A DNA stretch of 64,000 bases from Candidatus Sulfomarinibacteraceae bacterium (GCA_963796455.1 CAWCLO010000001.1:32001-96000); one strand, 5' to 3'; positions 4,284-61,303 are shown, counted from the first letter of the stretch. Made by a program: numbers and translations. The notes: generated by a model from the letters alone, not told the origin.

Positions 4284-4849
4284 CACTCTTGTCCAAGACA
4301 GAGTCTCGGATAGCGTTCAGGAACGGACCTGAAGGTGGGCCTTGGCCTAACTTCAGAGTTGTGCCCCGCTGGCTGCATCACCCAGCCCAGGCGGGAAGTA
4401 TCGGACAGCGATCAGGGGCAGCGGCAGCGAACAGTCGCCAGCGCCAGTGTTCAGTCATCAGCGTCAGCGATCAGCGGCCGGGACAGTGCACAGCACTCAT
4501 TTCTTCGGTAATCCGGCCTTGGTGGTGCGGCCGTCTCGGCCGCACGGTGGGTAGGCGAGACGCCGACACCACAGCGGCTGTTCCTTCTGTTGAACGACCC
4601 GGAGGTGATCACGCCGTCACTGCACCTGATTGCTGCACCTGATCTCTGCCTCTGATCGCTGATCCCTGTCGCTGCCCCTGTTCGCTGTTGCCTGTCGCTG
4701 ACGCTGGACACTGTCGCTGCCGCTGCAATTCGGACGCGGACGCGGACACGGGCACGGGCAACCGCGAACCGGAATTGCCAAGAACCAACCCGTAAACCAC
4801 GTGTTTATCAGTGGGGAAACTCCATGACGATCTTTTTTGGACAGCAGTG
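4284..4849 (-). mobile_element. CACT/AGTG TIR element, copy A (non-autonomous, REP-doublet core), inverted relative to copies B and D
   Basis: Ends CACTCTTGTCCAAGACAG and TCTTTTTTGGACAGCAGTG, flanked by AT on both sides inside a CTGGATG array; homologous to 25858-26715, 50605-50982 and 60868-61303. Confidence 0.8.
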
Positions 4850-4961
4850 ATGCTGGATGCTGGACTACCGCTGTCCAAATACAATTCGTCATGAGGGATC
4901 CAGGATCTAGCATCCAGTATCCAGCATCCTCTTTCCGCGGGAGCCTGTAACATAGCCCCCG

Positions 4962-7178
4962 ATGATCCAGACCCCCCTCCGCCAGCGCCTCGATCTCAGC
5001 ACGGGTTGGGAATTCGTGAAAGGCCGCGTCAGGCGAGGTTGGCTGGCCGGCAGGACCGGCGCCGGCGAGGTGGTGGATCTTCCCCACTCGTGGAACGCTT
5101 TTGATACCTACCAAGCGGGACGAAAAAGTTACTCCGGACGCGGCGCCTACCGGCGGGGCTTCGGTCTCCCCCGACCAGAGGGGGACGCCGGCATCCTGAG
5201 GCTCTACAGCGAGGGCTTCTACGGAGTCGGAGAAATCTGGATCGACGGCAAACGTATCGCCGATTTCGACGCCCAGTATCTCGGTTTCGACATCGACCTC
5301 CCAGAGGAGTTCAGCACCGGCGAACACGTCCTCGCCATCCGTCTCGACAATCGCTACCGCCCGAACGTCCTTCCGGGCAAACGAGACCCCGATTTCATTC
5401 TCCACGGAGGTGTGGCGGGCAGAGTATTTCTCGAACGAAGGACGGCGGTTCGTCTGAGCGTCAGCCAAATGGCAGTCACCAAGGAAACGGTGGATGAAGG
5501 CGGTGAGGAGCTGAGTCTTCACTGCGCAGTCGTCAATCAGACGGATCGTCCAGTCAATGGCATCGTTCGTTGGGTCGTCAGCGATCCCACCGGGTTTTCG
5601 GCCTGTGCCACTCAATCCGAGTCCTTCGAGGCCGCCGCCGCTTCACTCGGATCCGGGCTCGTCTCCGCCATCGTGTTGGATCGCCCGAAGTGCTGGTCGC
5701 CAGACTCGCCCCATCTCTATTGGGCCGAGTGCCGCCTGATCGTCGACGACATGGTGATCGATGCGGCCCGAATCCGTTTCGGAATAACCCGCGCCGAGTT
5801 TCGCCCCCGCGAAGGATTCTTCCTTGACGGCGCACGGGTCGATCTTCACGGCTGCAACCGCCACGAGGCCCTGCCTGGTTTTGGCAACGCCCTGCCGGAC
5901 GCGCTCCAGAGACGAGACGCCCACATCATGCACCAACTGGGCTGCAACTTCGTCCGTCTGTCCCACTATCCGCAGTCACCCACATTTATCGACGCCTGCG
6001 ATGAGCTGGGCATTTTGGTTTATGCGGAAATTGCATCCTGGAAGAGCGTCCGGTCGTCAAGAGGATGGCGCCGAGCCGCACGCCGCCAGATGCACGATCT
6101 CATCATTCGGGACCGCCACCACCCCAGCGTCATTCTGTGGGGAATGGGCAATGAATCGCGCTCGCGAAAGGCCTACCGGGAGCTGCGATCGATCGCGCGG
6201 GAACTCGATCCGGCGCGCCCGGTGATCTACGCCGAAAACCACCTCTACCGTGCCCGACGCGAGAAAACCATCGGCATCCCTGATGTGTGGGGTGTCAATT
6301 ATGAACTCGACGTATTGCAGGAGGCCCGCGATTCGAGCCGGCTCGAAAATGTCATTCTCTCCGAGTGCTGCAATCACCCCATGAGCATCAAGGGCGATGA
6401 ACGACAGGAACTGACTCAGGTCGCGACCCTGGAGCGAGAGTGGGAGGTGATGGACGAACATCCGTGGATCGCCGGCCACGCGGTCTGGGGCCTGACCGAC
6501 TACGCGACGGAACATCGTAATCGCTACCGCCGCCAGAACGGTCTGCTCGACGCCTGGCGGGGCCCGAAGATGGCGGCCGAACTCTTTCGCGCCCGCTATG
6601 CGGCGGCGCCCTTCGTGTCGATTTTCGTGACCCAGGAACGAGTTGATCTGCCGACCTCGAAATATCGAAAAGAGCATTCTCCCGAAATCTCGGGAGGCGG
6701 TCTCTTGCTGCACGTTTTTTCGAATTGCGAGAGTGTCCGGCTGACCCGCGACGGTTCGTATCTCGCGGTCCTCGAAGGGGCGCTGCACCACGTGGTCGAG
6801 ATCGATGATCGATTCCAGGAGATTATCGCCACCGGTTCTCGCGGCGAAGTAATGGACCAACAGGTGTATCGGCGGCACGATGCGGCGACCCGCATCGAGA
6901 TCACGACCACCGACCGGGCCACCGCCGGAGCGATCGTCACCCTCGATGTCTCGATCCGTGATCGATCGGGAGTGAAGGCCAGGAACTGGAATGGACACCT
7001 GCAAATCGCCAGCGAGGGCGATGCCCGGATGATTCCCTATACCGAGGCGGGGGATGTTCTGATGGCGCGGGGTGAAGGCCGCGCCTACCTCGAGGTCGGT
7101 CGATCCAGTGGCCTCATCATGATTCGGGCCGCCGGCGATGGGCTGGATCCGGGGTTTCTGACACTCAGCGATTCGTGA
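4962..7178 (+). CDS. Glycoside hydrolase family 2 (beta-galactosidase/glucuronidase-like)
   Basis: LPHSWN, HGCNRHE, RLSHYP, RDRHHPSVILWGMGNE (acid/base) and SE nucleophile region. Confidence 0.9.
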   Translation: MIQTPLRQRLDLSTGWEFVKGRVRRGWLAGRTGAGEVVDLPHSWNAFDTYQAGRKSYSGRGAYRRGFGLPRPEGDAGILRLYSEGFYGVGEIWIDGKRIADFDAQYLGFDIDLPEEFSTGEHVLAIRLDNRYRPNVLPGKRDPDFILHGGVAGRVFLERRTAVRLSVSQMAVTKETVDEGGEELSLHCAVVNQTDRPVNGIVRWVVSDPTGFSACATQSESFEAAAASLGSGLVSAIVLDRPKCWSPDSPHLYWAECRLIVDDMVIDAARIRFGITRAEFRPREGFFLDGARVDLHGCNRHEALPGFGNALPDALQRRDAHIMHQLGCNFVRLSHYPQSPTFIDACDELGILVYAEIASWKSVRSSRGWRRAARRQMHDLIIRDRHHPSVILWGMGNESRSRKAYRELRSIARELDPARPVIYAENHLYRARREKTIGIPDVWGVNYELDVLQEARDSSRLENVILSECCNHPMSIKGDERQELTQVATLEREWEVMDEHPWIAGHAVWGLTDYATEHRNRYRRQNGLLDAWRGPKMAAELFRARYAAAPFVSIFVTQERVDLPTSKYRKEHSPEISGGGLLLHVFSNCESVRLTRDGSYLAVLEGALHHVVEIDDRFQEIIATGSRGEVMDQQVYRRHDAATRIEITTTDRATAGAIVTLDVSIRDRSGVKARNWNGHLQIASEGDARMIPYTEAGDVLMARGEGRAYLEVGRSSGLIMIRAAGDGLDPGFLTLSDS

Positions 7179-7977
7179 TGTCGCCGAAGATCCTCTGCGA
7201 CAACTCGATCGTTTCTTCGTCGAACGCGGCAACGTACTCCGAGTCATCGATGAAGTGACGCCACCGTTCGAGGACAGCCATGTCCCGCGCCCGGTCCTGG
7301 AATTCCTGCCCCGAGAAGGAGCTGCCGCCTCCATCTGTCGAGACCTCGTCGAGCCCCCGATGCTCGTCGTCGAGCCCGAGTTCCCCGGCCTTGGCGCGGC
7401 GATAGTCGAGGTCTGAAAACCACTGATTGAAGCTGACCCTGATCGTATCCTCAGGCAAGAAGGAGGTCTCGCCGAGATACTCACGGGCGTAGACCTTCCA
7501 CTCGGTCTTGAAAAACCGATGGAGGCGGTTGCGCATCCTTCGTTTGCCGTGCCACACACTGGCAAAGGTGTTGTAGGCGTCGCGGAGCACCAGCACCGTC
7601 TGCACTTTATTGCTGGCGCCGATGTACCGCCTGGCGCCGTCGCCCAGGATGGCCTCACCCGGAACCCGCTTCAGGGGGAAGTTCTCGACGTTGGTGAGAA
7701 GGACCTCCTTGTGCATCTTCGCGACGTCGCGCCAGGAGGCTCCGGGCGGTAGCTCGACGTTGTAGAGCCGGCGGCCGGGACCGCCATATCGATCAGGATC
7801 GGTGATTCTTCGAAAAATTCTCTCGCCCCGAATCCGCACCTTGATGGGTTTGGAAAATGCGTTGTTGAGATGGAACACCTGCCGATCGAGGTTGCGCGCG
7901 ATCCAGTTGACCACGGCGTGGCCCCCGCCCCGTTTGAGGTGGTACACCCAGATCGTGAGGTCGTTGCGGTAGTTCAT
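7165..7977 (-). CDS. Hypothetical protein with sulfotransferase-like fold
   Basis: Start MNYRNDL at 7977; KRGGGHAVVNWI resembles the 5'-PSB loop and VLRDAYNTFAS the 3'-PB motif. Confidence 0.55.
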   Translation of the reverse strand: MNYRNDLTIWVYHLKRGGGHAVVNWIARNLDRQVFHLNNAFSKPIKVRIRGERIFRRITDPDRYGGPGRRLYNVELPPGASWRDVAKMHKEVLLTNVENFPLKRVPGEAILGDGARRYIGASNKVQTVLVLRDAYNTFASVWHGKRRMRNRLHRFFKTEWKVYAREYLGETSFLPEDTIRVSFNQWFSDLDYRRAKAGELGLDDEHRGLDEVSTDGGGSSFSGQEFQDRARDMAVLERWRHFIDDSEYVAAFDEETIELSQRIFGDITNR

Positions 7978-8092
7978 CTGAGGATGAGTATATCCGGGGT
8001 GCCACGTACACACTTCCACAGTTGTCAGACTGCCGCAGATCCATGGCTTCACAGATAGGGGCAACTTGGACGTGGCACCCTGAAACGCGCCT

Positions 8093-8118
8093 TGGTGGTG
8101 CAGGCGTCTCGCCTGCAC
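8093..8118 (+). repeat. Single REP-like hairpin TGGTGGTGCAGGCGTCTCGCCTGCAC
   Basis: Same unit forms the doublets at 4520-4573, 27458-27509, 50759-50813 and 61109-61163; lies just past the kinase stop codon. Confidence 0.75.
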
Positions 8119-8124
8119 AATCGG

Positions 8125-9201
8125 TCAGCGGCGAACCCGGGCGTTGCCGGCCCAGATGCTCCAGATCTGCTCCTCGTCCGCCGGTTGGGCGTAGTCCGTC
8201 AGCAGGGTCGTCACCAGGGCGCCACTCGCCCATCCGAATTGGATCCATTTCTCGGGTTCCCAGCCCTTGAGCATGGCGTAGAGCAAGCCGCCGACGAACC
8301 CGTCGCCACCACCAATGCGATCGAGGACAACGATCTCCCGCGGCTCGACTACGTGCCACTCGTCCCCCACCGCTGCGATGGCGCCCCACATATGGGCATT
8401 GGTGCTGATGACCTCGCGTAGAGTAGTGGCAAAAACCGTTGTCTCGGGGTAGGCCGCCTTCGCCCGGTCGATCATGCCTTTGAAGCTCTCGATCTTCGCG
8501 GCGAGGTCTTTGCCACCGGCTTCCGGACCCTCGATGCCGAGGCAGAGCTGGAAGTCTTCCTCGTTTCCGACCAGTACATCGGACAAGGAGGCGATCTCGT
8601 GGAAAACCTCGTGCAGCTCGTCTTCACGATTGGCCCAGAAGGTGGCGCGGTGGTTGAGATCGAAAGAAATACGGCTGCCGTGCTCTTTGGCGGATCGAGC
8701 CACATCCAGGCAGAAGGCGCTGGTCTCCGGCGACAGGGCACCGACGAGCCCCGACAGGTGCACGGCACGAACACCCTCGCTCCCGAAGATCCGATCGAAA
8801 TCGAAGTCCTTAGCGTTGAGGGTGAGTCCGACCTCTCCCGCGCGGTCGTTGTGGACGCGAGGCCCGCGTGAGCCGTAGCCGGTGTCTGCCATGTTGATCT
8901 GGTGGCGGTATCCCCAGGGCCCTCCCGGGTCGACCTCTCGACCCTCGTAGTCCATGTGGCGAGCCGCCAGGTCATCCTTGATCATGCGCGAGATCGGGCT
9001 GCCTTTGACAAAGGCCGTCAGGACCTTCACGGGCAGGCCGAGATAGGAAGAGACACTCGCCACGTTTGATTCGGCGCTGGTGACCTCCATGACAAAATTC
9101 TTGCTGCAATGGACTCCCTGGCCGTTGGACGGCGTCAGCCGAACACCCATACTTGTGGGCACCAGAAGTGCGTATCTGCTGTCTTCGCGAAAGGTGATCA
9201 T
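8125..9201 (-). CDS. kdgK: PfkB-family sugar-acid kinase (KdgK-like)
   Basis: SFDLNHRATFW, GNEED and DRIGGGDGF motifs; in a hexuronate operon. Confidence 0.75.
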   Translation of the reverse strand: MITFREDSRYALLVPTSMGVRLTPSNGQGVHCSKNFVMEVTSAESNVASVSSYLGLPVKVLTAFVKGSPISRMIKDDLAARHMDYEGREVDPGGPWGYRHQINMADTGYGSRGPRVHNDRAGEVGLTLNAKDFDFDRIFGSEGVRAVHLSGLVGALSPETSAFCLDVARSAKEHGSRISFDLNHRATFWANREDELHEVFHEIASLSDVLVGNEEDFQLCLGIEGPEAGGKDLAAKIESFKGMIDRAKAAYPETTVFATTLREVISTNAHMWGAIAAVGDEWHVVEPREIVVLDRIGGGDGFVGGLLYAMLKGWEPEKWIQFGWASGALVTTLLTDYAQPADEEQIWSIWAGNARVRR

Positions 9202-9219
9202 TTTCGGTGTTTCCTCTCT

Positions 9220-10674
9220 CTACGCCTGGTAGGTGTTCGCGGTGACATCGCCACCGTGACCGGTCCAATCGGTGTGGAAGAACTCGCCCCGCGGCCGGTC
9301 CACCCGCTCATAGGTGTGGGCACCGAAATAGTCGCGCTGAGCCTGCAGGAGATTTGCCGGCAGCCGTCCATGACGGTAGCCGTCGAAGAAGGCCAGACCG
9401 CTGGACATCGCCGGCACCGGGATCCCCATCTGCACCGCCCTGGACACAACCCTTCGCCACGCAGCCTGGGCATTCTCGACCGCCTCTTTGAAATAGGGAT
9501 CGAGGAGCAGATTGCTGAGCTCCGGGTCGTTGTCGAAGGCCTCTTTGATCTTGCCGAGAAAGGCCGAGCGAATGATGCACCCACCGCGCCACATCAACGC
9601 GATGCCACCGTTGTTGAGGTTCCAACCGTATTCTTTGGCGGCCGCCCGCATCAGCATGTAGCCCTGCGCATAAGAAATGATCTTGGCCGCGTACAGCGCT
9701 TGGCGCAGGTCATCGACAAAAGCCTCGCGGTTGCCCTCGAATGAGGCATCAGGACCGGAGAGCACCTGCTCAGCCGCCACCCGCTCTTCTTTCAATGCCG
9801 AAAGAAAACGCGCCAGCACAGCCTCGGCAATCAGGGTCAAAGGAATGCCCATTTCGAGGGCGGACATGGCAGTCCACTTCCCGGTGCCCTTTTGTCCCGC
9901 GGTATCGAGGATCTTTTCGAGCACCGGCTCGCCGTCGTCGTCCTTGAAACCGAGGATGTCCCGCGTGATCTCGATCAGATAGGAGTCCAGCTCGCCCTCG
10001 TTCCACACGGCAAAGGTCTTGTGCATCTGGTCGTGGTCGAGCCCGAGGCCCTCCTTCATCAATTGATAGGCTTCGCAGATCAACTGCATGTCACCGTATT
10101 CGATGCCGTTATGAACCATCTTGACGAAGTGACCGGCGCCGTTCTCACCCACCCAGTCACAACAGGGGGTGCCATCCTCGACCTTGGCCGAGACGGCCTG
10201 GAAGATCGGTTGAACGTGTTGCCACGCAGCCGGAGAACCACCGGGCATGATTGAGGGCCCGAGCCGCGCGCCCTCTTCGCCACCGGACACACCGGTGCCG
10301 ATATAGAGCAGCCCCTTTGATTCGACGTGGGCCGCGCGCCGCATGGTGTCGTTGTAGTTGGAGTTCCCTCCGTCGATAATGATGTCGCCCTCTTCGAGCA
10401 AGGGGATCAGGGTTTCAATGAAGTCATCGACCGGTTTGCCCGCCTTGACCAACAACATCACGCGCCGTGGTTTTGCGAGGGCGTCGACCAGTTCCTCCAC
10501 CGAATGGGCGCCGACGATCTCGGTTCCTTTTGCGTTTCCGTTCAGGAATTCGTCCACCGTCGCCACGGTCCGGTTGTAGACCGCGACCTTGAAACCATGG
10601 TCGTTCATATTCAACACGAGGTTCTGTCCCATCACCGCGAGCCCGATGAGACCGATGTCTGCCTTGTCCGTCAT
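9220..10674 (-). CDS. gnd: 6-phosphogluconate dehydrogenase, decarboxylating
   Basis: [31 protein letters not shown] and [12 protein letters not shown] motifs. Confidence 0.97.
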
Positions 10675-11975: not shown

Positions 11976-12754
11976 ATCGTCATCGCGGTAAAACCGCCGT
12001 CGACCCGGATCAGCGCACCGGTCACAAAGCCCGATGCCCTATCCGAAGCCAACCACACGGTAGCGCCCGCAAGCTCGTCGGCCTCGCCGAAGCGGTTCAT
12101 GGGCGTGTGCGCCATGATGGTTGCGGTGCGCTCCTCGGTCAGTAACTTCCGGTTCTGCTCGGCCGGGAAAAAGCCCGGCGCGATAGCATTGACCCGGACA
12201 TTTTGGGGAGCCCACTCGCGGGCCAGGAACTGGGTGAGGTTGTTGACACCCGCCTTGGTGACCGAGTAGGTAAAGACCTTGGAGAGCGGCGGACCGGAAG
12301 AAGCCGACGAGATGTTGATGATCGACCCGCCCTCGCCTCGCTCCACCATTTCTTGGCCGAAGACCTGGCACGACAAAAACATGCTCTTGAGATTGACCGA
12401 GATGATCCGGTCCCACTCTTCTTCGGTGATCTCGAAGAATGGAGTTCCGGAATTGATGCCGGGGGCATTGAGCACCACATCGACTCTCCCCCACACCGCC
12501 AGAACCTGGCCGAGCGCCTTCCGCAGATCCTCCTCGCTGGTGGCGTCGATCGCCATACCAAGGGCATCGACCCCGGAGACGGAGCGGATGCTCTCCGCCC
12601 TCGCGTCCGCGGCCTCGCCGTTGAGATCGAGGACAGCAACACGGGCGCCCGCCGCACCAAGCGCCTCCGCCATCGCACCAGCCAGCACACCACCGGCGCC
12701 GATCGCAACCGCGACCTTGCCGTCAAGTGAAAACATCGATTCGAGATAGCTCAT
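11972..12754 (-). CDS. SDR oxidoreductase, probable fructuronate reductase
   Basis: Rossmann GAGGVLA, YSVTK catalytic motif, VNAIAPGFFPAEQNRKLL; directly after uxaE. Confidence 0.8.
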   Translation of the reverse strand: MSYLESMFSLDGKVAVAIGAGGVLAGAMAEALGAAGARVAVLDLNGEAADARAESIRSVSGVDALGMAIDATSEEDLRKALGQVLAVWGRVDVVLNAPGINSGTPFFEITEEEWDRIISVNLKSMFLSCQVFGQEMVERGEGGSIINISSASSGPPLSKVFTYSVTKAGVNNLTQFLAREWAPQNVRVNAIAPGFFPAEQNRKLLTEERTATIMAHTPMNRFGEADELAGATVWLASDRASGFVTGALIRVDGGFTAMTI

Positions 12755-25766: not shown

Positions 25767-26120
25767 GTGCAGACGCAGCTGGACAACCATAGAGGCACAG
25801 AGAAACGGTGGCCTGCCCACCCGATGCTAGCTAGATACTGGATGCTGGATGCTGGATCACTGCCGTCCAAAACAGGTCGTCACCTGAAGTTTCCCACCTG
25901 ACAACACGTGATTTACGGGTTGGTTTTTGGCATATCCGGTTCGCGGTTGGCCCCTACCCGATCCCGAAGTACAGCGGCAGCGACAGTTGGCAGCGGCAGG
26001 TCCAGCGTCAGCGACAGTTGGCAGCGGCAGTGTCCAGCGTCAGCGACAGGAAACAGCGAACAGGGACAGCGGTCGGTGTTCAGTGTTCAGCGGCAGCGGT
26101 CAGGAGTACAGGCGACGAAG

Positions 26121-26259
26121 TGGCCACCTCCGGGTCGTTCAAAAGAAAGGGGTAGCCGGTGGGCGGCCGATGTCACGGACAGGCAAGGTGCAGGGCATCC
26201 TTGACATCGGCCACCACACCGGCTTGTGGGTATGGGCATGAACGACCCGGAGGTGACCA
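26121..26259 (+). promoter_or_regulatory. Long leader hairpin occluding the SD and start of the four-helix-bundle gene
   Basis: 26121-26141 pairs with 26239-26259 (20/21, includes GGAGGT and the A of ATG); inner stem 26154-26179 pairs with 26198-26224. Confidence 0.7.
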
Positions 26260-26612
26260 TGTCCTCAGCCGCCACGAACACCAACCTCGTTGCCCACTCG
26301 AAAGCCCTCGAAGCAGCGGGCATCGCGATCAAGCTTGTGATGAGGGTTCCGGCTCCTCTGAAGTCCATAGCCGATCAGGTAATCCGGTCGGCAAGTTCAG
26401 TCCCCGCAAACCTGGCGGAAGGTCACGGCCGATTCGGTAGAGACCGGTCGAACCACTGGAGAATCGCCTACGCCTCAGCCAAAGAGGTCGACAGCCACTT
26501 GAAGCTCCTCGTCCACGCTGGGGCGGTCAACCGGAATGGAGCCGGTGAAGCGATGAAGGCCTTCGATCAGGTCCGTGCCACGACCTGGAGGCTGCTGAAC
26601 TCGACAGAGTGA
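26259..26612 (+). CDS. Four helix bundle protein (23S rRNA-IVS / Avd-like family)
   Basis: 117 aa; DQVIRSASSVPANLAEG.GR and IAYASAKEV motifs; GGAGGT RBS at 26249-26254. Confidence 0.88.
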   Translation: MSSAATNTNLVAHSKALEAAGIAIKLVMRVPAPLKSIADQVIRSASSVPANLAEGHGRFGRDRSNHWRIAYASAKEVDSHLKLLVHAGAVNRNGAGEAMKAFDQVRATTWRLLNSTE

Positions 26613-26834
26613 GTGCTGTTGGCTGGCGCTGTCGCCGTCCCGGCCGCTGTTCGCTGCCGCTGAATCCTGTCGCTGTCCCCGACCCCTGTCCGAGACCCTG
26701 TCTTGGACAAGAGTGATGCTGGATGCCGGATGCTGAATCCGCCCACCAACCCACACCGTCGCAATCACAAAGACCCAAAGCCATCACAAACCTGCGTCGT
26801 GAGCTCCTGGAGTCGCGTGAACATCTCCGGTTTT

Positions 26835-29245: not shown

Positions 29246-29365
29246 GGCTATGAGGCTATGACCGGCTGCTTCGCAGCCTGGCTATGAGGCTCTGAGGGCG
29301 ACACGAAACAGCCTCGCCACCCATTGCCGCCCCATAACCCCATAGCTTCATAGCCTCATAGCCCC
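29246..29365. repeat. Inverted octamer arms (GGCTATGA)n ... (TCATAGCC)n between adk and glpK
   Basis: Directly visible complementary tandem arms. Confidence 0.8.
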
Positions 29366-29377
29366 AAAGCTTCTTTT

Positions 29378-50604: not shown

Positions 50605-50982
50605 TACTGTTGTCCACGAAAGTGCCTCGGACAAGGTTCAGGGGCAGCGGCAGCGACAGGGAGCAGCGATCTGTATTCGGCGTCAGCGTTCAGTCATCAA
50701 AGTCAGGGAAAAGATGCTGGGACAGCGAATAGCACTCACTTCTTCGGGGCTCCGGCCTTTGTGGTGCGGCCGTCTCGGCCGCACGGTGTGCAGGCGAGAC
50801 GCCTGCACCACAACGGTTGTTCCTTCTGTTGAACGACCCGGAGGTGGCCACTTCGTCGCCTGGACTCCTGACCGCTGCCGCCGAACACTGATCGCAGTTT
50901 CCTGTCGCTGCTTCCTGTCGCTGTCGCTGGACACTGTCGCTGCCTCTGCAATACGGGCACGGACGCGGGCAACGGCGAACCG
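50605..50982 (-). mobile_element. CACT/AGTG TIR element, copy C (degenerate, truncated)
   Basis: Decayed end TACTGTTGTCCACGAAAG; REP doublet at 50759-50813; GTTGAACGACCCGGAGGTG core; homology stops at GCGAACCG before the bcp stop. Confidence 0.7.
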
Positions 50983-52342: not shown

Positions 52343-52416
52343 TCTTTCGGTTCCGGATTCGCCAAAACGATCGGCGTCGCCATCGTAATTGAAGGCAGCC
52401 TAGATCGAGCGAAATC

Positions 52417-52446
52417 CGATAGCGATAGCGATGGCGATAGCGATAG
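52417..52446. repeat. (CGATAG)-like hexamer x5
   Basis: Same unit as at 1761-1792 (inverted) and 41577-41594. Confidence 0.7.
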
Positions 52447-52504
52447 CGAGAAGTGGAGTGAAATTGAAAGAGCTACCACTGTATAGTCATCACCGACGGG
52501 GAAA

Positions 52505-55500
52505 ATGACCACAGATAAAGAACACCGCGACCAGCGGGAACCGGCGAGTGACGCCGAACAGGTTCTCGAATTGGCGGCAAAACGGGGGCTGATTTCGGAG
52601 GAGGATGCGGAATCCACCATTGCCGAAGTCAGGGCCCGACTGGTGGATGCGGGTCTCTACGATGTGGAAGAACCGTCGGTCCAGATCGTGCTGCCCGACC
52701 ACCTCTTCGAGGATGGCACCCTAGCCCAATTGGCCCGTGAACTCGGTCTCGACGATGCCGATTGGCTCCGGGAACCGGCGCCGGGAAGCGCGCGTTCATC
52801 GGATCCCTTCGAGGTCTTTCCGGTCGCGAACTGGGGTCGCTACGAGTTTGTCGAATTTATCGGTCGCGGCGGCATGGGCGACGTCTTCAAGGCCCTGGAC
52901 ACAAGCCTTGGCCGACACGTGGCACTCAAGTTCCTCCGCCGCGACGATCCCGAACAGATCAAACGATTCACCCGCGAGGCCCGGGTTCAGGCCAAGGTCG
53001 ACCACGAAAACCTGTGCCCGGTCTACGAGGTCGGCGAGGTCGAAGGTCTGTCCTACATCGCCATGCAGTACATCTCCGGTGGTTCGATCAAAGAGGTCGC
53101 CGATCTTCTCAGCATCGAGGAGAAAGTGGCGATCATGGTCGATGTGGCCGATGCACTTCATGCCGCCCACCAGGCCGGGCTCATCCACCGGGACATCAAA
53201 CCCGCGAATATCCTGGTTGAACGGAATGCTGATGGCACCTGGCATCCCTATGTGGTCGATTTCGGAATCGCGCGCGAAGTGGACACACCCCACGATCTCA
53301 CGGTCTCCGGAATGGTCCTCGGGACACCCGCCTTCTGTTCACCTGAGCAGGTACGGGGCGAAATATCGAAACTGGACCGTCGAACCGATGTTTACGGTCT
53401 CGGCGCCACGCTCTATTGGTTGCTGACCGGACAGAGCCCCTATGCCGGAGCCTACCCGGAGATCATTTCCGGAGTATCCGAGAGAGACCCGACGCCACCA
53501 CACCGGATCAACCGTTCGATTCCGGTCGATCTCGAAACCATTGTTCTGAAATGCCTCGAAAAGGACCAGGACCGACGCTACGCCAGTGCCAGGGAGGCGT
53601 CGGAGGATCTGCGTCGATTCCTCGCAGGTGAACCCATCGCGGCGCGTCCGGCGGGAATTCTCTACAAGCTCGGAAAACGGATTCGAAGATACCCCGGTCT
53701 GACCGCGGTAATTCTGATCGCAGTCATCGCCTTTGCCGCACTCGGGTTCTTGAGCCTGCGGACCAATCTTCGAACCCGACAACAGGCCGCAATCGCTCAG
53801 AATCTCACCGAACAGGTCAAGGAGATCGAGGGATTTGCCCGGGTGGCGGCGATGATGCCACCGCACGACCGAAGCGCGGAACGTGAGATCATCCTGCAAC
53901 GGATGTCCGAGATCGAAAACGAAATGAACCGGATCGGTGAGATCAGCGCCGGTCCCGCCTCCTACGCTCTCGGACGCGGATATATGACCCTCGAAAATGA
54001 CCAGGAGGCCCGACGTCATCTCGAACGGGCGATCAACCAGGGCTACTCGAGCGCCGGCGTCAACTATGCCCTTGGAATGGTTCTCGGCCGGCTCTACAAG
54101 GACGAGCTCGATCTGGCACGCAGGATCGAAAACACCGAATTGCGAAGCGCCCGAATCGAGAAGGTCGAGAACGACCTCAGGGAACCGGCGCTGGCCTACC
54201 TCCGTTCAGGGAGAACCACATCTTCGGATGGTGCCGGCTACGCCGAAGCTTTGATCGCCTTCTTCGGAGGCCAACTCGAAGAGGCCCTCGCCGCAACCCG
54301 GGAGGCCTACGAGAACGAGAATTGGCTCTACGAAGCCAAACGCCTCGAGGGTGACATTCTGCTCGAGATCGGCGCCGAACGGCGCCTGCTCGGCGACACC
54401 GAGGGGGCTCTCGATGTCCTCGATGCAGCAGGACAGGCTTTCGCCCTGGCCTCCGATATCGCGCGTTCGGACCCGAGCGTCCACGAAGGCGAGTGCGCCC
54501 GCTGGACCGAGATACTGGAAATCCGAAGCCGCCGCGGCGCAGCGGTCGTGGATGCCTTCGAGCAGGCTGTGGCCGCGTGCGACCGCGCCCTGGAGATCGA
54601 TCCGAATCGCGCGGCGATCCACGAACGCCTTTCCCACCTTTACTGGCGCTGGGCGGATATCGTCAATGACCGCGGCGGCGAACCCGGTCCGTTTCTGACC
54701 CAATCCATCGCCTCGGCAGATCGCGCGATTGCCGTCGATCAATCCAGTGTTGCCGCTTATTCGACCCGCGGTGGCGCTCTCACGGTGGCGGCGCTCGGTG
54801 AGGCGGCAAAGGGTGAAGATCCTCGGCCGACTCTGAGGCGGGCCATCGAAAGTTTTGAGAGCGCAATCGAAATCGACCCCGGTGCAGTCCTCGCTCACGA
54901 CGATCTCGGTTACGCGTGGGAACTGCTGGCGCGACACGAAATGACTCGCGGAGTGGATCCGAGAAACGCTCTCGATCGCGCGACCGCATCGTTCCGGCGA
55001 GCGGCGGATCTCAATCCACGTTATGCCAACGCCCACAACAATCTCGGTATCGCGCTGTGGCGCAGGGCCGTGTACCTGATGCGAAGCGGCGGCGACCCAA
55101 GATCCACGCTGACCGAATCATTTGCGGCATTTGATGCAGCGATCGAGCGCAATCCGGACTACGCCTACGCCTACGCCAACCGTGGGCTGGCCGGCCGCTA
55201 CCTGGCCAAATTCGAGCTGTTACGGGACACTGATCCATCAGCCGCCGTCGACCGTGCCCGCAATGACCTCGGCCGAGCGCTGTCGCTCAATCCGCAGATT
55301 TTCTGGGCCTACCCGGAACGCGCAGCGGCGGAACTCCTGGCCGCACAATGGGCCATACGAAACGGAACATCACCGGCCGGCCAACTGAGTGCGGCCGCTG
55401 CCGCGGCGGAGAAAGCTCTTGCAGCAAATCCCCAGAACTCGGTCGCCTACCAGAGCTCAGCGGAAGTCCACCGCTGGCGTGCCGAGTGGCTGCTCGCCCA

Positions 55501-55765
55501 GGAGCAATCGGTGCGCTCCGACGTGATCGCCGGGCGCAGTCTGATCGAGCAGGCTCTGGCCCGCAATCCCGAGTCGGCCAACTCCAGGGTCACCGACGCA
55601 GCGCTGGCGACAATTCAGGCCTCGGCCGAAAACGACTCCGTCGTGCGCTCGGCCCTGCTGGCTGACGCCAACACCCTCCTGGACGAGGCACTCCAGATCA
55701 ACCCCCTTCTTGAACGCGAGACTGAAGCGCTGCGAGAGCGCATAAAATTTCTCGAATCCCAGTAA
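52505..55765 (+). CDS. Hanks-type Ser/Thr protein kinase with TM segment and C-terminal TPRs
   Basis: GRGGMG, VALK, HRDIKPAN, DFG and GTP..SPEQ; many TPR-like repeats. Confidence 0.93.
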   Translation: MTTDKEHRDQREPASDAEQVLELAAKRGLISEEDAESTIAEVRARLVDAGLYDVEEPSVQIVLPDHLFEDGTLAQLARELGLDDADWLREPAPGSARSSDPFEVFPVANWGRYEFVEFIGRGGMGDVFKALDTSLGRHVALKFLRRDDPEQIKRFTREARVQAKVDHENLCPVYEVGEVEGLSYIAMQYISGGSIKEVADLLSIEEKVAIMVDVADALHAAHQAGLIHRDIKPANILVERNADGTWHPYVVDFGIAREVDTPHDLTVSGMVLGTPAFCSPEQVRGEISKLDRRTDVYGLGATLYWLLTGQSPYAGAYPEIISGVSERDPTPPHRINRSIPVDLETIVLKCLEKDQDRRYASAREASEDLRRFLAGEPIAARPAGILYKLGKRIRRYPGLTAVILIAVIAFAALGFLSLRTNLRTRQQAAIAQNLTEQVKEIEGFARVAAMMPPHDRSAEREIILQRMSEIENEMNRIGEISAGPASYALGRGYMTLENDQEARRHLERAINQGYSSAGVNYALGMVLGRLYKDELDLARRIENTELRSARIEKVENDLREPALAYLRSGRTTSSDGAGYAEALIAFFGGQLEEALAATREAYENENWLYEAKRLEGDILLEIGAERRLLGDTEGALDVLDAAGQAFALASDIARSDPSVHEGECARWTEILEIRSRRGAAVVDAFEQAVAACDRALEIDPNRAAIHERLSHLYWRWADIVNDRGGEPGPFLTQSIASADRAIAVDQSSVAAYSTRGGALTVAALGEAAKGEDPRPTLRRAIESFESAIEIDPGAVLAHDDLGYAWELLARHEMTRGVDPRNALDRATASFRRAADLNPRYANAHNNLGIALWRRAVYLMRSGGDPRSTLTESFAAFDAAIERNPDYAYAYANRGLAGRYLAKFELLRDTDPSAAVDRARNDLGRALSLNPQIFWAYPERAAAELLAAQWAIRNGTSPAGQLSAAAAAAEKALAANPQNSVAYQSSAEVHRWRAEWLLAQEQSVRSDVIAGRSLIEQALARNPESANSRVTDAALATIQASAENDSVVRSALLADANTLLDEALQINPLLERETEALRERIKFLESQ

Positions 55766-55784
55766 GATCAACAGAGGAGACCCC

Positions 55785-56363
55785 ATGAGAAACCTGACCT
55801 CAGCCATAGTCATCGTCTTGGCCCTGGCGTCGCTCGGCGCCACTAAGACAAAGGCCTATGTGGATTTTGACCGATCGGTCGACTTTCAATCCCTTCGAAC
55901 CTTCGCCTACATCGATACCCTCGAAACCTCGGTCGCCGAGCAAGCACCGCCGGTCCACGAGATGATCAAGCTGATCATCGTCAACAGATTCAAAAAGGGC
56001 GGCATGCAGGAGGTCGGCGAAAACGAAAACCCCGATATCTTGATCACCTACCACACCGACACCAATCAGGCCATGCGGATGAACACCACGCTATACCAGT
56101 ACCACTACAGTGCGAATTGGTATTGGAGCCCACTGTGGGGCAGCGGGATGGACGTCTCGAGCTACAGCCGCGGCACCCTGATCATCGATGCGTGGGTCCC
56201 AAAAACCAATACCCTGATCTGGCGCGGCACCGTTATTGGAATCGTTCCAGATGACCCGAGCCCGAAGAAGGCCCGTTCGACCATTGAAAAGGCGATCGAG
56301 AAGATCGCGAAAGAGTGGAAAAAGCACCGGAACGACCCACCACCAGTGCCGCCCTCCGAATAG
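55785..56363 (+). CDS. DUF4136-like exported protein
   Basis: VDFDRSVDF..RTFAY, PDILITY and GTLIID...LIWRG pattern. Confidence 0.75.
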   Translation: MRNLTSAIVIVLALASLGATKTKAYVDFDRSVDFQSLRTFAYIDTLETSVAEQAPPVHEMIKLIIVNRFKKGGMQEVGENENPDILITYHTDTNQAMRMNTTLYQYHYSANWYWSPLWGSGMDVSSYSRGTLIIDAWVPKTNTLIWRGTVIGIVPDDPSPKKARSTIEKAIEKIAKEWKKHRNDPPPVPPSE

Positions 56364-56470
56364 CGATCGAGGGTTCAGGAGGCTGGATTGCTGCTGTCCG
56401 AGACGGCGTCACGAACAAGGGTGATGCTCAAAGACGGATGCAGCACGCACGGGCGCACGGTACGGAGTGA

Positions 56471-56542
56471 CCGCAGATCACGCAGATGAACGCAGATCAA
56501 TTCGGGACCGATAATTTGTGTTTGTCTGCGTTATCTGCAGTT
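56471..56542. repeat. Inverted CGCAGAT nonamer arms
   Basis: CCGCAGATCACGCAGATGAACGCAGAT ... TCTGCGTTATCTGCAG. Confidence 0.7.
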
Positions 56543-56625
56543 TTCCAGCCTTTGGGTGGGGGACCTGATCCCTGCACACGAGCGGTCTCCCCTTCCCACT
56601 TTCGTCAACGGGAAAGGAACGGTCC

Positions 56626-56786
56626 TTCAAGATGTCATCCTGAGCGAGGCCGTCCGACGGCCGAGTCGAAGGACCCGTTCGACTCGCGTCGCTCGCTCAG
56701 GGCAGGTTCTGCGGCCTTGGGTTTCTTCCGCGTGCGCCATAGATCCTTCGACTACGCCCTTGGAGGGCTCCGCTCAGGATGACATC
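56626..56786 (-). repeat. GATGTCATCCTGAGCG palindromic element, copy 2 (inverted)
   Basis: Reverse-complement homolog of 1500-1666, including internal segments. Confidence 0.85.
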
Positions 56787-56839
56787 GGGAGGCGACACGC
56801 GCATTGAGGAACAATTTGTGCCGGGTGGTTTTCCCTTTC

Positions 56840-57091
56840 TCCTCCGCCCCTCTGCCCCTCTGCCATGTAGGAGGTTGTAAACTCCGAACTCCGAACTCCG
56901 AACTCCGAACTCCGAATTCCGAACTGAACCCCCTCTCTCCTCCGCCTCTCGCCAATAGTGGCCATGCCGAAAATTCGAAATTCGAAATCCCAAATCCGAA
57001 ATCGATCTGGATTCCCCCTTCTCCCTTTCTCCCTTTCTCCCTTTCTCCCTTCTCCCTTTCCCCCTTTCTCCCCTTCTCCCTTTCCCCCTTT
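56840..57091. repeat. Tandem clusters CCCCTCTG, (AACTCCG)x5, AAATTCG/AAATCCG and (CCCTTTCT)n
   Basis: Directly visible; 56850-56921 has an inverted homolog at 62304-62365. Confidence 0.8.
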
Positions 57092-57192
57092 CGGGATCCG
57101 TATCCACAGCGAGGGTTCGAAAGCGATAGCGCAGGATCGTACAGAATCAAACTCCGGCGGCGTTGAGAAAACCGTGCGCTAAACTGGACTCT

Positions 57193-59682
57193 ATGGCTCT
57201 ACCGCGATTTCGCTCCAATCTCCAGGACTCGCTCGGCAAACTGGCGAGGCACGAATATCAATCGGCGGAGGAATGCGACGCCCTCCTCCAGACCCTCTTT
57301 GAAGCCCAGAACATCAAGCCCAAAGACGTGGTGTGGATGGCATTTCGCGCGGAACGACCCCTCCGCGATGCATCGGTTCGCCTCCTTCGGCGATTGCGAA
57401 CCACTGCGACGGTCAGTCAATTCGTAGCCGAAAGCAGAGGCAAATCCGAATCCTCCCTCCGCATGGCCGCCGAGATTCTCTTTGGGCTTCGCATTCCGGA
57501 CATCGAGGCATATCTCATCGCTTTGCTGAGTGCGGAGGATGAGGCGGTCCGCGATGCCACCCGCAGGTTGATTTTCGAGGCTCCGACCACCGAGTCGATG
57601 CAGACCCTTTTCTGGCGGCTTGTCGAAACCAGCCCGACCGAAGACCGCAACATCTTTCTCGAACGTCTGGCCTCCCTCGATTTCAATCCCGACTCCCTTC
57701 CACGCTGGAGTCAACTTGTATCAGACGAGGACTCGAGGGTCCGGGCGACCGCACTCCGATTCCTTGCCGACAATTGCGCGGAAGATTCCGTCGATCTGAT
57801 CGTCGACCATCTGCCACGGGTCGACTACGCGACCCAACAGCACCTCATCGAAGCCCTCAGCCGGGTCGCCCTTTCGCTCGGGCCGGGTTTTGTCGACCGC
57901 CTGCTCCCTTTGATGGCGTCGGGAGAAGCAGGCACCCGATCGGCGGTGATCAAGGTCCTGCTCAGCATGGACAACCGCCACGAATTGGTGAAGAGCTACC
58001 TCAAATTTTCGAAAACCCTCGCCGGATGGGCCCGCGATCGCGCCCTCGACTCGATGCGAGAGTTCGGCGACGATCTGGTGGAACCCACCCTCGAACTCCT
58101 CAACGACAGCGACGAGGAGATACGCGCGCTGGCGCTGGTGGTGGCAGGCTCCTTCGACGATCCTCGAATCATCCCGGCCACGATCGGTCTTCTCAAGGAC
58201 CCCGACTGGTGGCTCCGGGTGACCGCAGCCGACACCCTCGGCAGATTCCATGATGCGAGCGCCGTCGACGCCCTGATCGCGACTCTCGATGACCCGGAGG
58301 CTCGATGGTCGGCGGTCGAGGCCCTCGGCCGCATCGGCGATCCACGATCGCTGCAGGCCCTGGCCAAGCTCTTCGCCGACCCCGCACCCGAGGTCCGAAT
58401 CGAGGTCTTGCTGGCGCTGCGAAAGTTCAATCACCCGAAGATCCTCGAAGCACTGCAAAAGGTGGCGGCCACCGATCCTGACCGAAACGTCCGCAGCCGG
58501 GCCCTGGAGATCACCGAGGAGGTTGCGCGACGTGACAACACCCAGGTCGCTGATGCAGACGGCCTACGCGCCAAGGCGCTCCGAGTCGAGGCGGGAGAAA
58601 ACGAGCCGCGTCTGCACGAATTGCTCGCGCAGACTCGCAATAAGGGCGCCTCCGATTTTCACCTGGCGGTGGGTCTACCACCGATGGTTCGCGAATCGAT
58701 CCGGTTGGTTCCCATGAAGGGCGCGCCATTCTCCGCGGATGAAACCGAAAAAATGGTGCGCGAAATCCTGACCGAGGACCAACTCCGGCGTCTGGACGAG
58801 GAACAACAGCTCGATCTGTGTTACTTCGTCCCGGGGGCAGGCCGCTATCGAGGCAACATTTTTCTCGATCACAAAGGTCTGAACGCGGTCTTCCGTGTCA
58901 TACCTGAACAACCACCGACGATCGAGGAGATCGGTCTCCCCGGCCATCTCGCCGAAATCGCCTCGCACCACCAGGGCCTCGTCCTTGTGTGTGGTCCGAC
59001 CGGCTGCGGCAAGACCACCACCCTGGCGGCTCTCGTCAACCTTTTCAACGAAACACGACAGGCCCACATCATCACGCTCGAGGAACCGGTGGAGTTCGTC
59101 CACCCGTTCAAAAACTGTCTCGTCAACCAACGTGAGATCGGGGCTGACACCGAGTCCTACGCCCGGGCCCTCCGCGGTGCGCTCCGCGAAGACCCGGATG
59201 TCATCGTCATCGGAGATCTGCGCGACAACGAGTCCATTTCACTCGCGCTGACGGCCGCAGAAACCGGACACATCGTACTCGGCACCCTCAGCTCGACCAC
59301 CGCGCCAAAGGCGATCGATCGCATCATCACCAGCTTTCCCCACAAAGAGCAGCCACAGGTCCGAATCGCCCTGGCCGAATCACTCAAGTACATCATCGCG
59401 CAACGTCTCCTACCCATCCAAGGAACCCGCGAGCGGATCGCCTGCTTCGAGATCCTCATCGGCACCATGTCGGTCACCAACCTGATTCAGGACGAAAAAA
59501 CCTACCAGTTGACCTCCGCCATGCAGCTGGGCAAAACCCAGGGGATGCAGACCTTTGACGACGGCCTCCGGCGCCTGGTGCGGTCCGGCAAGATCACGGC
59601 GGAAGATGCCTACCTGCACGCGACGAATCGGGAGGAGTTCGAAGCGATGGTTTCGGAAGAATTTCTCGCGGAGAGGGGCTGA
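57193..59682 (+). CDS. PilT/PilU-family ATPase with long N-terminal HEAT-repeat domain
   Basis: About 450 aa of HEAT-like repeats, then ASDFHL, GPTGCGKTTT, LEEPVEF, LREDPDVI and AETGH. Confidence 0.85.
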   Translation: MALPRFRSNLQDSLGKLARHEYQSAEECDALLQTLFEAQNIKPKDVVWMAFRAERPLRDASVRLLRRLRTTATVSQFVAESRGKSESSLRMAAEILFGLRIPDIEAYLIALLSAEDEAVRDATRRLIFEAPTTESMQTLFWRLVETSPTEDRNIFLERLASLDFNPDSLPRWSQLVSDEDSRVRATALRFLADNCAEDSVDLIVDHLPRVDYATQQHLIEALSRVALSLGPGFVDRLLPLMASGEAGTRSAVIKVLLSMDNRHELVKSYLKFSKTLAGWARDRALDSMREFGDDLVEPTLELLNDSDEEIRALALVVAGSFDDPRIIPATIGLLKDPDWWLRVTAADTLGRFHDASAVDALIATLDDPEARWSAVEALGRIGDPRSLQALAKLFADPAPEVRIEVLLALRKFNHPKILEALQKVAATDPDRNVRSRALEITEEVARRDNTQVADADGLRAKALRVEAGENEPRLHELLAQTRNKGASDFHLAVGLPPMVRESIRLVPMKGAPFSADETEKMVREILTEDQLRRLDEEQQLDLCYFVPGAGRYRGNIFLDHKGLNAVFRVIPEQPPTIEEIGLPGHLAEIASHHQGLVLVCGPTGCGKTTTLAALVNLFNETRQAHIITLEEPVEFVHPFKNCLVNQREIGADTESYARALRGALREDPDVIVIGDLRDNESISLALTAAETGHIVLGTLSSTTAPKAIDRIITSFPHKEQPQVRIALAESLKYIIAQRLLPIQGTRERIACFEILIGTMSVTNLIQDEKTYQLTSAMQLGKTQGMQTFDDGLRRLVRSGKITAEDAYLHATNREEFEAMVSEEFLAERG

Positions 59683-59685
59683 TCG

Positions 59686-60792
59686 ATGGCCGAACACAAA
59701 CGCGTCGATCGTTTCCTGCAACTCATGAACGACCGCGGAGCCTCCGATCTTCATTTTTCGGTCGGTCGTCCACCCATGTTGCGGGTTGGAGGATCGATGG
59801 AGCAGATCCGCTATCGCACGGTGAAAGAGCTCGACTATGTCGACCTCATCAAACCCATCTCTCCTACAGCTCGCTGGCAGCAATTCGAAGAAACGGGCGA
59901 CACGGATTTCTCCTACGAACTCGAAGATGTCGGACGCTTTCGGGTCAATCTTTTCCGCCAGCAGCGTGGATCGGGCGCGGTTTTTCGGATCATTCCATCA
60001 AAGATCATGACCATCGAACAGCTCAGTCTGCCACCACAGCTGCGACGTCTGGCCGATATCCGGAGCGGCATGGTCATCGTCACCGGTCCCACCGGTTCGG
60101 GAAAATCGACCACCCTGGCAGCCATCATCGATCTCATCAACGAGACCAAGAGCTACCACATTGTGACGATCGAAGACCCCATCGAGTTCGTGCACGCCAA
60201 CAAGGAGTGTCTGATCCACCAGCGCGAGGTCGGGACCCACGCAGCGTCCTTCGCCGATGCCCTGCGCGCCGCCGGCCGCGAAGACCCCGATCTCGTCCTG
60301 GTCGGCGAATTGCGAGATCTCGAGACCATCTCGATGGCGTTGTCCGCCGCGGAACGCGGCACCATCGTCTTTGCGACCTTGCACACCAACAACGCCATCA
60401 AGACCGTGGACCGAATTATTTCGGTATTCCCAGCCGGTGAACAGGAAGGGGCGCGCAACGTCCTCGCCGAAGGCCTGCAATCGATCGTGTCGCAGCAGCT
60501 GATGCCAAAGATCGGTGGCGGGCGGGCGGCGGCGGTCGAGATCGTTTTCATGTCGCCGGCCATCTCGAATCTCATTCGGCGTGGCAAGACCCAACAGATC
60601 ACTTCACTCATCCAGGGAGGGGTGAATCAGGGCATGATCGATATGGACACCTCGATTCGCGCCCTTTACGACGAGGGAATCGTGACCGCCCAGGCGGCCT
60701 ACGACAAGGCGATCGACAAGGAATTGTTCAAGGACATCATGGACGAGGGCGGCGGAGGGGCTCCCGCAGACCAGCCACCATCGGAATCCTGA
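59686..60792 (+). CDS. pilT: Type IV pilus retraction ATPase
   Basis: ASDLHF, GPTGSGKSTT, IEDPIEF, REDPD, TLHT and AISNLIR motifs. Confidence 0.9.
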   Translation: MAEHKRVDRFLQLMNDRGASDLHFSVGRPPMLRVGGSMEQIRYRTVKELDYVDLIKPISPTARWQQFEETGDTDFSYELEDVGRFRVNLFRQQRGSGAVFRIIPSKIMTIEQLSLPPQLRRLADIRSGMVIVTGPTGSGKSTTLAAIIDLINETKSYHIVTIEDPIEFVHANKECLIHQREVGTHAASFADALRAAGREDPDLVLVGELRDLETISMALSAAERGTIVFATLHTNNAIKTVDRIISVFPAGEQEGARNVLAEGLQSIVSQQLMPKIGGGRAAAVEIVFMSPAISNLIRRGKTQQITSLIQGGVNQGMIDMDTSIRALYDEGIVTAQAAYDKAIDKELFKDIMDEGGGGAPADQPPSES

Positions 60793-60867
60793 TCTTCGGA
60801 CAGGTTTGGACGCTCGATGCTCGACACTCGATGCTCGACGCTCGATGCTGGATGCTGGATGCTGGAT

Positions 60868-61303
60868 CACTGCTGTCCAAAACAGATCGTCACCTGAAGT
60901 TAGGCAACTGAAACACGTGGTTTACGGGTTGGTTTTTGGCATATCCGGTTCGCGGTTGGCCCGTACCCGATTCCGATCCCGATCCCGAATTGCAGCGGCG
61001 GCGACAGTGTCTAGCGACCGGGTTCAGCGATCGGTGTTCAGCGGCAGCGATCAGGAGTCCTGGCGACGAAGTGGCCTCCTCCGGGTGGTTCAACAGAAGG
61101 AACAGCCGTTGTGGTGTAGGCGTCTCGCCTGCACACCGTGCGGCCGAGACGGCCGCACCACAAAGGCCGGAGCCCGAAGAAGTGAATGCTGTTCGCTGTC
61201 CCGGCCGCTGATCACTGACGCTGATGACTGATTGCTGCCGCTGACTCCTGATCTCTGTCGCTGTCCCTGTTCGTTATCCGAGAACCTGTCTTGGACAAGA
61301 GTG
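60868..61303 (+). mobile_element. CACT/AGTG TIR element, copy D (non-autonomous, REP-doublet core)
   Basis: Ends CACTGCTGTCCAAAACAG and CTGTCTTGGACAAGAGTG, AT on both sides, inside a CTGGATG array. Confidence 0.82.

Follow-up and report, generated by a model that had tools for sequence, protein, structure and literature searches.

How does one short element come to lie several times within 64 kb, in both orientations, at a fixed position of tandem heptamer arrays? The question is raised by 64 000 nt of DNA from a Candidatus Sulfomarinibacteraceae bacterium (GCA_963796455.1, CAWCLO010000001.1:32001-96000; 'the window' hereafter means this whole stretch), in which copies of an element with inverted-repeat ends interrupt arrays of the (CTGGATG)n type. 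We consider it probable that the element descends, as a non-autonomous form, from an insertion sequence (IS) of the IS4 family, and that it is moved in trans by a transposase of a heptamer-reading IS4 clade and lands either way round in arrays that existed before. Directly observed were the ends, a 9-bp repeat, the preference for arrays, the cargo, and the autonomous relatives with their flanks.

Copies A (4284-4849, minus strand), B (25858-26715, plus) and C (60868-61303, plus) have exact ends, with terminal inverted repeats (TIRs) of the CACTGCTGTCCAAAACAG / CACTCTTGTCCAAGACAG type (15/18 identity) and junctions of the GCTGG-AT type. Copy D (50605-50982, minus) is internally homologous to the others; it retains one degenerate end, has lost the other and lies outside heptamer arrays. 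A preliminary description of the window had reported these coordinates, repeats and junctions, and all were reproduced, as was its conserved end block of ∼95 nt (81/97, 82/97 and 87/96 in pairwise comparison of A, B and C, or 84-91% identity). Its label 'transposase-less' is right in that no transposase lies between the ends; copy B is nevertheless not empty, since it contains an open reading frame (ORF) that had been missed, matching PF05635/TIGR02436, with PF05635 the only match found within this copy. The element is abundant, as had been expected: a profile search of the assembly holding the window (5.02 Mb, 10 contigs, 90.5% complete) gave 136 end-block matches at E<=0.01, 112 of them paired with an opposite-end match within 4 kb, and a 16-mer end pattern (at most one mismatch) was matched 191 times, versus once for the backwards control.

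The 9-bp sequence ATGCTGGAT is repeated on both sides of A (4275-4283 and 4850-4858), B (25849-25857 and 26716-26724) and C (60859-60867 and 61304-61312; all plus strand). Across 66 copies with both ends clean (64 in later counts, after removal of two nested composites), the identity of left and right flanks peaked at 9 bp (0.79). The preliminary description had taken the junctions for a duplication of the two bases AT or, alternatively, for an AT crossover core. At the 40 array sites flank identity is 0.90, 0.84 and 0.76 for 2, 9 and 16 bp, respectively; as duplications of these three lengths look alike in a 7-mer array, the 2-bp reading is an artefact of the period. At the 26 non-array sites 9 bp fits best (0.73, versus 0.60 for 2 bp and 0.38 for 16 bp); 1000 shuffled pairings of flanks gave 0.36 here, with a maximum of 0.44. 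A 9/9 repeat is seen in 17 and an 8/9 repeat in 16 of the 64 clean copies; among 26 paired elements of relatives the corresponding counts are 13 and 8. The peak at 9 bp, non-array sites included, falls within the 8-10 bp of the IS4Sa subgroup.

The ends had been thought to belong to no described IS family. When between one ninth and one seventh of the GTDB contigs were scanned for the 16-bp end, 119 stretches from many phyla were obtained; eight loci hold full-length elements bounded by these ends, with perfect 9-bp repeats at three of them (L066, L067 and L081). The long, transposase-enclosing copies that the preliminary description had proposed to look for thus exist, in other genomes, as ISs of 1.34-1.41 kb, and their NF033592 transposases place the ends in the IS4 family. 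Locus L022, in a genome of the same genus, is an autonomous IS of 1411 bp with these ends. Its single-ORF transposase scores 251 bits against NF033592 (cut-off 115), has the domains DUF4372 and DDE_Tnp_1, and carries D129, D195 and E298 (DDE spacing 66/103) together with a full YREK motif, YKDRWQIELFFKALK, in agreement with D(60-110)D(100-150)E and Y(2)R(3)E(6)K. Compared with the autonomous element at L248, the ends of our element are identical at 18/18 positions of the left inverted repeat (IRL) and 17/18 of the right one (IRR). Table 1 of PMC2266710 lists for IS4Sa CA------T ends with a relaxed third base, direct repeats of 8-10 bp and a length of 1150-1750 bp; ends, repeat length and parent length all fit this row. 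Judged from such sequence comparison the ends are of the IS4-family type with the IS4Sa signature, and by every tested feature the element belongs to the non-autonomous class of this family.

As the transposases read from the CACTCT end towards the CACTGC end, what had been called the left end is the right end of the IS. The ∼95-nt block aligns with the parent IS from the transposase stop codon to the IRR, and when this subterminal block was scored on 71 IS right ends L022 came out best (z 5.3). A tblastn search of the assembly with 14 cognate-type transposase ORFs, and a search with the L022 DNA, found no cognate transposase; on this ground mobilization in trans, proposed earlier, is likely. 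The sole DDE_Tnp_1 match of this genome (C7:291107) was rejected as mobilizer because it lacks these ends; at G000:C7:291075-293780 an IS110-like and a DDE_Tnp_1 transposase lie next to each other at a contig end, unrelated to the element ends. Two further observations concern related elements. At L066, L067, L071, L081 and L100, ∼250-310 bp inside the IRR, the codons of the conserved QIWTAL motif of these transposases reproduce the end of the element almost perfectly and in the IRR direction, possibly as an internal binding site or an alternative end. Genome G120 has 47 end matches and many gene-less shells of this subgroup, some with octamer repeats inside their ends; no transposase match was found in this genome.

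Insertion into repeats, which the preliminary description had suggested checking by tabulated flanks, is evident from the counts. Of the 118 ATCCAGC-class arrays, 42 have an element end no more than 5 bp away, versus 3/358 other heptamer arrays, 1/337 octamer arrays and 1/216 hexamer arrays. Flanks with period 7, in a fixed AT register, surround 43 of the 64 clean copies, versus 0.7% of random 23-mers; since the other 21 have no heptamer-periodic flank, the preference is strong but not exclusive. The symmetrized target is conserved across 23 bp with AT every 7 bp (0.59, 0.70, 0.70 and 0.59 at offsets -7, 0, +7 and +14). The preference for (CTGGATG)n-type arrays is real. The target word, AT-S-C-W-G-S, is identical on both strands, and this quasi-palindromic nature of the class explains why the two orientations are about equally frequent (20 versus 18). 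Copy A is flipped relative to its array, the direction of the array itself being unchanged. Of the two origins suggested earlier for this flip, independent insertion stands; in-place inversion finds no support. If inversion involved a crossover in the shared core, outer TIR bases should be swapped at both ends, a pattern present in 0/64 copies (crossovers at the outermost bases would be invisible).

A search with the L022 protein yielded 80 metagenome loci, 71 of which were read for ends. The three proteins closest to L022 (88, 83 and 81%) are all encoded in heptamer arrays, as is L022 itself. In a tree of 33 proteins (at least 58% identity) L022, L233, L248 and L249 form a clade with 100/100 support; its four intact members have period-7 flanks at 8/8 ends, compared with 4/147 outside the clade (duplicates kept). 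The left and right 9-mers of metagenome loci often disagree (7/39 perfect), probably because multi-copy elements collapse in assembly. Gene-less shells from other phyla have periodic ends in a minority of cases (2/10 in G120, 3/10 in G121, 3/4 in G119). There appears to be a small, well-supported clade of IS4 transposases that homes on tandem heptamers with host-specific words. As a separate observation, in the tail of L249 the autonomous copy is followed by five array units and then by a second right end, a case of repeated landing in one array.

Where do the arrays come from? The heptamer pattern is present in 19 of 24 same-genus genomes, including three without any end match (G015 with 228 pattern matches, G004 with 33 and G018 with 11). 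In G015, a different four-helix-bundle gene (locus L382) is flanked by a (GATGCTG)n arm on one side and an (ATCCAGC)n arm on the other. As far as these sequence comparisons go, heptamer arrays precede insertion. In the genome under study, 81 of 159 arrays have no end within 25 bp, although a few of those lie beside decayed ends. In a family of ten copies, among them G000:C10:485454-485669 and C1:1067866-1068056, non-coding cores of 93-97 bp lie between mirror-image arms with as many as 17 heptamer units; eight copies are hit, one is unclear, and one (C1:1067866-1068056), with both arms and no insertion, is a paralogous empty site. The core has no convincing match in 24 relatives.

Four more four-helix-bundle genes of this genome (C4:1278094, C1:983149, C9:2726 and C10:733004), each single-copy, and two GxxExxY genes (L408 and L409) have mirror arms of their own, each with its own word of 6, 7 or 8 bases. 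The words of the four single-copy genes recur without a gene genome-wide, in the window at 1873-2005, 29246-29370 and 52417-52449. No gene was found between heptamer arms in 19 inverted pairs of this genome or in 30 array-picked loci of relatives; of 25 loci read after a TIGR02436 search, one had the exact arms and two a related word.

Orthologous sites were compared for copies B and C. At the pilT-type junction of copy C the element is found in none of 10 relatives over the 520 nt read (one contig ends at ∼100 nt); three junctions are compact, and the others hold REP-like repeats (REP, repetitive extragenic palindrome) or a different heptamer pair. The site of copy B has a single orthologue, with a GGATTTC array. 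More broadly, the convergent junction of pilT-type and hydrolase genes (window 60793-61411; L206-L215) carries a different repeat family in most relatives and none in three, and from sequence it is a sink for repeats. In contigs of five sediment or marsh runs, neither copy B nor copy C was bridged by a joint with 31 letters per side. A skip of 435 bp at copy C was rejected as an excision: its 24 letters per side lie inside a repeat, with 11 further letters between them.

The cargo of copy B is an ORF of 117 codons (26259-26612) with matches to PF05635 (51.6 bits), TIGR02436 (52.7 bits) and PDB entry 2GSC (E 0.003); a long hairpin precedes it, and hexamer arms that mirror each other flank it. 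The hairpin has a fold z of -7.4; of its 52 pairs, nine show two-sided change among nine sequences. PF05635 has 70 matches genome-wide, 67 of them above the cut-off, and the passenger ORF itself is intact in 58 copies with a mean identity of 89%. The ratio of nonsynonymous to synonymous change (dN/dS) is 0.14, with 0.10 for shared and 0.47 for singleton changes, which points to purifying selection on the passenger. In 25 copies four-gamete conflicts become more frequent with distance (0.41 increasing to 0.87), and variation in the end block fails to track that in the ORF; the copies being mosaics, dN/dS characterizes the pool rather than individual copies.

Among 109 paired elements shorter than 1.2 kb, the long form accounts for 39 and short forms carrying a REP-like doublet for 32; A, C and D have the doublet instead of the gene. 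The short form retains the first hairpin arm and the last codons of the ORF and is thus derived from the long one. Gene-less forms are widespread. Of 97 matches to the doublet, 63 lie outside paired elements; the four-helix-bundle cassette is present in 19 of 24 same-genus genomes, mostly without these ends, and the same shell has other REP-like cargos in relatives G008, G024, G012 and G020. Shell and cargo are separate modules. At L004, L011, L012 and L014 (in G014, G008, G017 and G005) the cassette sits in another shell, with GG-type ends; that shell is itself inserted in another heptamer array, of the GAACGTT type, and a second transposase family may target heptamers as well. With regard to REP-associated tyrosine transposases, six Y1 transposase matches were seen, one of them (L166) with REP-like motifs close by.

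The sequence of events that we propose starts from IS4-family transposition, in which a DDE transposase excises both ends and joins them to target sites staggered by about one helix turn (PMC2266710). Movement would likely be by cut-and-paste in trans, the mobilizer being a member of the L022/L233/L248/L249 clade that was lost from this genome or is unassembled. With a stagger of 9 bp, the enzyme would read the 9-mer and one flanking unit on each side. Both strands of (ATCCAGC)n would present the 9-mer AT-S-C-W-G-S-AT at intervals of 7 bp, making an array a cluster of overlapping targets; being quasi-palindromic, it would offer the 23-mer once per 7 bp, whichever the direction, and in intergenic DNA where insertion does no harm. 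A second lineage of four-helix-bundle cassettes may be the source of the arrays, through its mirror-image arms. A shell could have captured a hexamer-armed four-helix-bundle cassette, giving the 850-bp form, whose gene would later have been swapped for a REP-like doublet to give the 440-bp form, with recombination exchanging sequence among copies. Repeated landing in the same arrays would produce nested insertions, composite copies like A, and remnants of ends like the one at 4866-4897.

Several points weigh against this explanation. The fifth clade member, fragment L417, has a single readable flank that is non-periodic, which brings the clade count to 8/9 readable ends. The words of the intact members (AACTCAA, AATTAAG, ACTTTAG and AACTAAG) are unlike the arrays of our element, and the AAAACTC arrays of this genome are hit in 0/43 cases, so that none of the four is the exact mobilizer. 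The clade is small and was drawn from the nearest matches of the query, and its hosts may just be heptamer-rich. In subterminal score the non-clade locus L348 reaches 42.6 versus 43.0, and L233 and L249 are outside the top 14. Of 25 genomes of the genus a single one yielded a cognate transposase, and none was found in this 90.5%-complete assembly. The ATCCAGC class was drawn after the data had been seen (a stricter rule gives 27/65 versus 18/413); moreover, two arrays can be marked by the same insertion, and an array grows longer through the duplication itself. Perfect 9/9 repeats are limited to 17/64 clean copies. Finally, no orthologous empty (CTGGATG)n site, looked for at the positions of copies B and C in relatives as the preliminary description had proposed, was seen.

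Could arrays simply accumulate insertions passively? An IS4Sa transposase of the usual kind, with no more than a loose preference for AT-N5-AT, would leave a similar picture if it inserted widely, selection cleared genes of insertions and arrays remained as dense, harmless targets. Rebuilt insertion sites do avoid open frames (10/64 versus 245/400 random sites), AT at both 9-mer ends is enriched in 118 end flanks from many phyla, the 21 copies without a periodic flank are readily accommodated, and IS50, according to PMC1525189, prefers clusters of overlapping targets without specialization. Yet a neighbouring unit accompanies 25 of 26 consensus 9-mer insertion sites, whereas 420 of 1012 genomic matches to the 9-mer are isolated (these may be mostly genic), and non-clade transposases of the same subgroup stay at the low rate of periodic flanks given above; we regard passive enrichment as unlikely. 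Still less probable, in our judgement, is that four-helix-bundle proteins, each bound to its own repeat word, bring in the IS4 transposase, the target word following the host protein. That the targeted word varies by host while the ends are nearly the same, that arrays are arms of four-helix-bundle genes, and that the passenger ORF is under purifying selection would all suit such an adaptor. The passenger's own arms are hexamers, though, and hexamer arrays are hit once in 216; this assembly yielded no gene flanked by ATCCAGC arms; and autonomous, gene-less and REP-carrying copies in relatives all reach arrays. Equally improbable is the selfish circuit that would follow, with S23p/Avd-like proteins marking their tandem-repeat arms on DNA and serving as swappable targeting adaptors for an IS4 clade, whose transposon would home to heptamer microsatellites and in turn spread the four-helix-bundle gene; if true, it would provide the first function for the S23p family and a swappable protein guide for a DDE transposase.

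Two more readings concern the 2-bp and 7-bp regularities, and we give very little credence to either. The element might build its own arrays, insertion adding 9 bp and excision between the ATs leaving 7 bp; 9 minus 2 is indeed the period, and AT-periodicity falls with distance from the junction. The arrays in the three genomes without end matches, their arrangement as mirror arms around a four-helix-bundle gene, the 81 arrays remote from any end and the paralogous element with both arms and no insertion contradict this as the origin of arrays; local additions of single units could still occur. The mechanism of the preliminary description, a new type of element with a 2-bp AT duplication or a recombinase-type AT crossover core and possible inversion in place, draws on the 2-bp identity at array-flanked sites and on TIR-TIR inversions documented for ISs (PMC3004938). 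Against it stand the better fit of 9 bp at non-array sites, several junctions without AT, the DDE-transposase ISs to which the ends belong, and the lack of swapped outer bases in the 64 copies, subject to the limit stated for that comparison.

The copies in the window illustrate the forms described above. Copy A (566 bp, gene-less) is a composite, ∼95 bp longer through a more distal left end. Its extension has captured a REP-like hairpin (4329-4356, plus), a motif that is the cargo of a 311-bp form in relatives; a decayed inner left end (4379-4398, plus), shared with locus L025, was probably in use before the extension. A GTGG/GTAG-tagged REP-like doublet (4522-4572, no strand assigned) takes the place of the gene. 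The heptamer array on the left (4260-4283, plus) resumes at 4850-4864 and has an inverted arm at 4898-4929; the same array contains the truncated remnant of another right end (4866-4897, plus). Copy B (858 bp, gene-bearing) lies inside the array 25830-25857/26716-26733. On the plus strand it comprises the IRR (18 bp) with the ∼95-nt block (25858-25952), an upstream hexamer arm of CAGCGG/CAGCGA type (25972-26110), the leader hairpin, which pairs over the ribosome-binding site GGAGGTGA (26121-26258), the four-helix-bundle ORF (23S_rRNA_IVP/S23p, Avd-like) and a downstream inverted arm of GCTGTC type (26613-26690); the IRL, the one identical to that of L248, follows at 26698-26715 (minus).

Copy C (436 bp, gene-less) interrupts the array 60812-60867/61304-61328, with an inverted arm at 61381-61407; it has a REP-like doublet (61111-61161, no strand assigned; fold z -5.5) and retains the final three codons and the stop of the four-helix-bundle ORF (61174-61185, plus). 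Copy D is a decayed gene-less form, with a degenerate IRL and a REP-like doublet but without IRR or heptamer array. An unoccupied array of the same heptamer class, with seven units, lies at 1289-1338 (plus). Neighbouring genes at 57163-59682 and 59686-60792 encode PilT/T2SSE-type ATPases, the first fused to HEAT repeats, and a tRNA gene at 62463-62536 (minus) is the sole Rfam match in the window.

Among known systems, IS4Sa as characterized in PMC2266710 shares with our element the ends, the repeats of 8-10 bp, the parent length of 1150-1750 bp and, in the autonomous relatives, a single-ORF DDE transposase with YREK; the window copies differ in having no transposase. This comparison is with features of the subgroup as a whole. 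A 23S rRNA intervening sequence (IVS) of the S23p type was ruled out, since there is no rRNA in the window and the copies follow protein genes. For such IVSs PMC4990558 describes tandem heptamers upstream of the ORF and an old idea that they are mobile; in common is an S23p/PF05635 ORF inside a long stem, whereas the gene here lies between protein genes, with a strong ribosome-binding site, the low dN/dS given above and an IS shell. Also ruled out were a recombinase-type element with a 2-bp core at all sites, since 9 bp fits the non-array ones, and a REP-inserting IS, the target being a tandem heptamer. In comparison with Tn5/IS50, whose preference for clusters of overlapping targets is summarized in PMC1525189, the preference here is much stronger, natural, 7-bp-periodic and confined to one transposase clade.

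PMC4692102 describes the literature on intergenic heptamer repeats in bacteria as thin and did not find the repeats that it studied to be generally linked with mobile elements. We found no report of an IS targeting heptamer arrays or of the cassette; subscription journals and ISfinder were outside the scope, and the figure supplements of PMC2266710 may name a relative. The results join the excess of bacterial intergenic heptamers with the S23p/four-helix-bundle family, 58 conserved copies of which ride the same shell. The clade offers ready enzymes, ends and targets for studying how a DDE transposase reads periodic DNA, and its transposases may be of use as a site-preferring insertion tool.

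Mobile insertion cassettes (MICs) and transposable elements of the miniature inverted-repeat type (MITEs) are mobilized in trans. With MIC231 and other passenger-carrying IS231 derivatives and MITEs, as presented in PMC2266710, our element shares IS4-family ends, unrelated cargo and the lack of a transposase; it differs in subgroup, in having >100 copies, and in a cargo, either a four-helix-bundle cassette or REP-like doublets, that is swapped between lineages. The closest parallel in targeting is ISRm22 of Sinorhizobium meliloti, an IS4Sa member found in one extragenic repeat class with conserved target arms (PMC1525189); in like manner, the IS4Sa-type copies here mostly break one repeat class at a fixed register. 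Unlike in ISRm22, as given in that paper, the target is a tandem 7-mer microsatellite and not a REP hairpin (REP-like doublets being cargo), the duplication is 9 bp rather than 6 bp, and the word varies by host within one clade. By analogy, then, the element works like an IS4-family MIC or MITE with ISRm22-like repeat targeting, and as both components have precedents, it is a variant of known systems rather than a new category.

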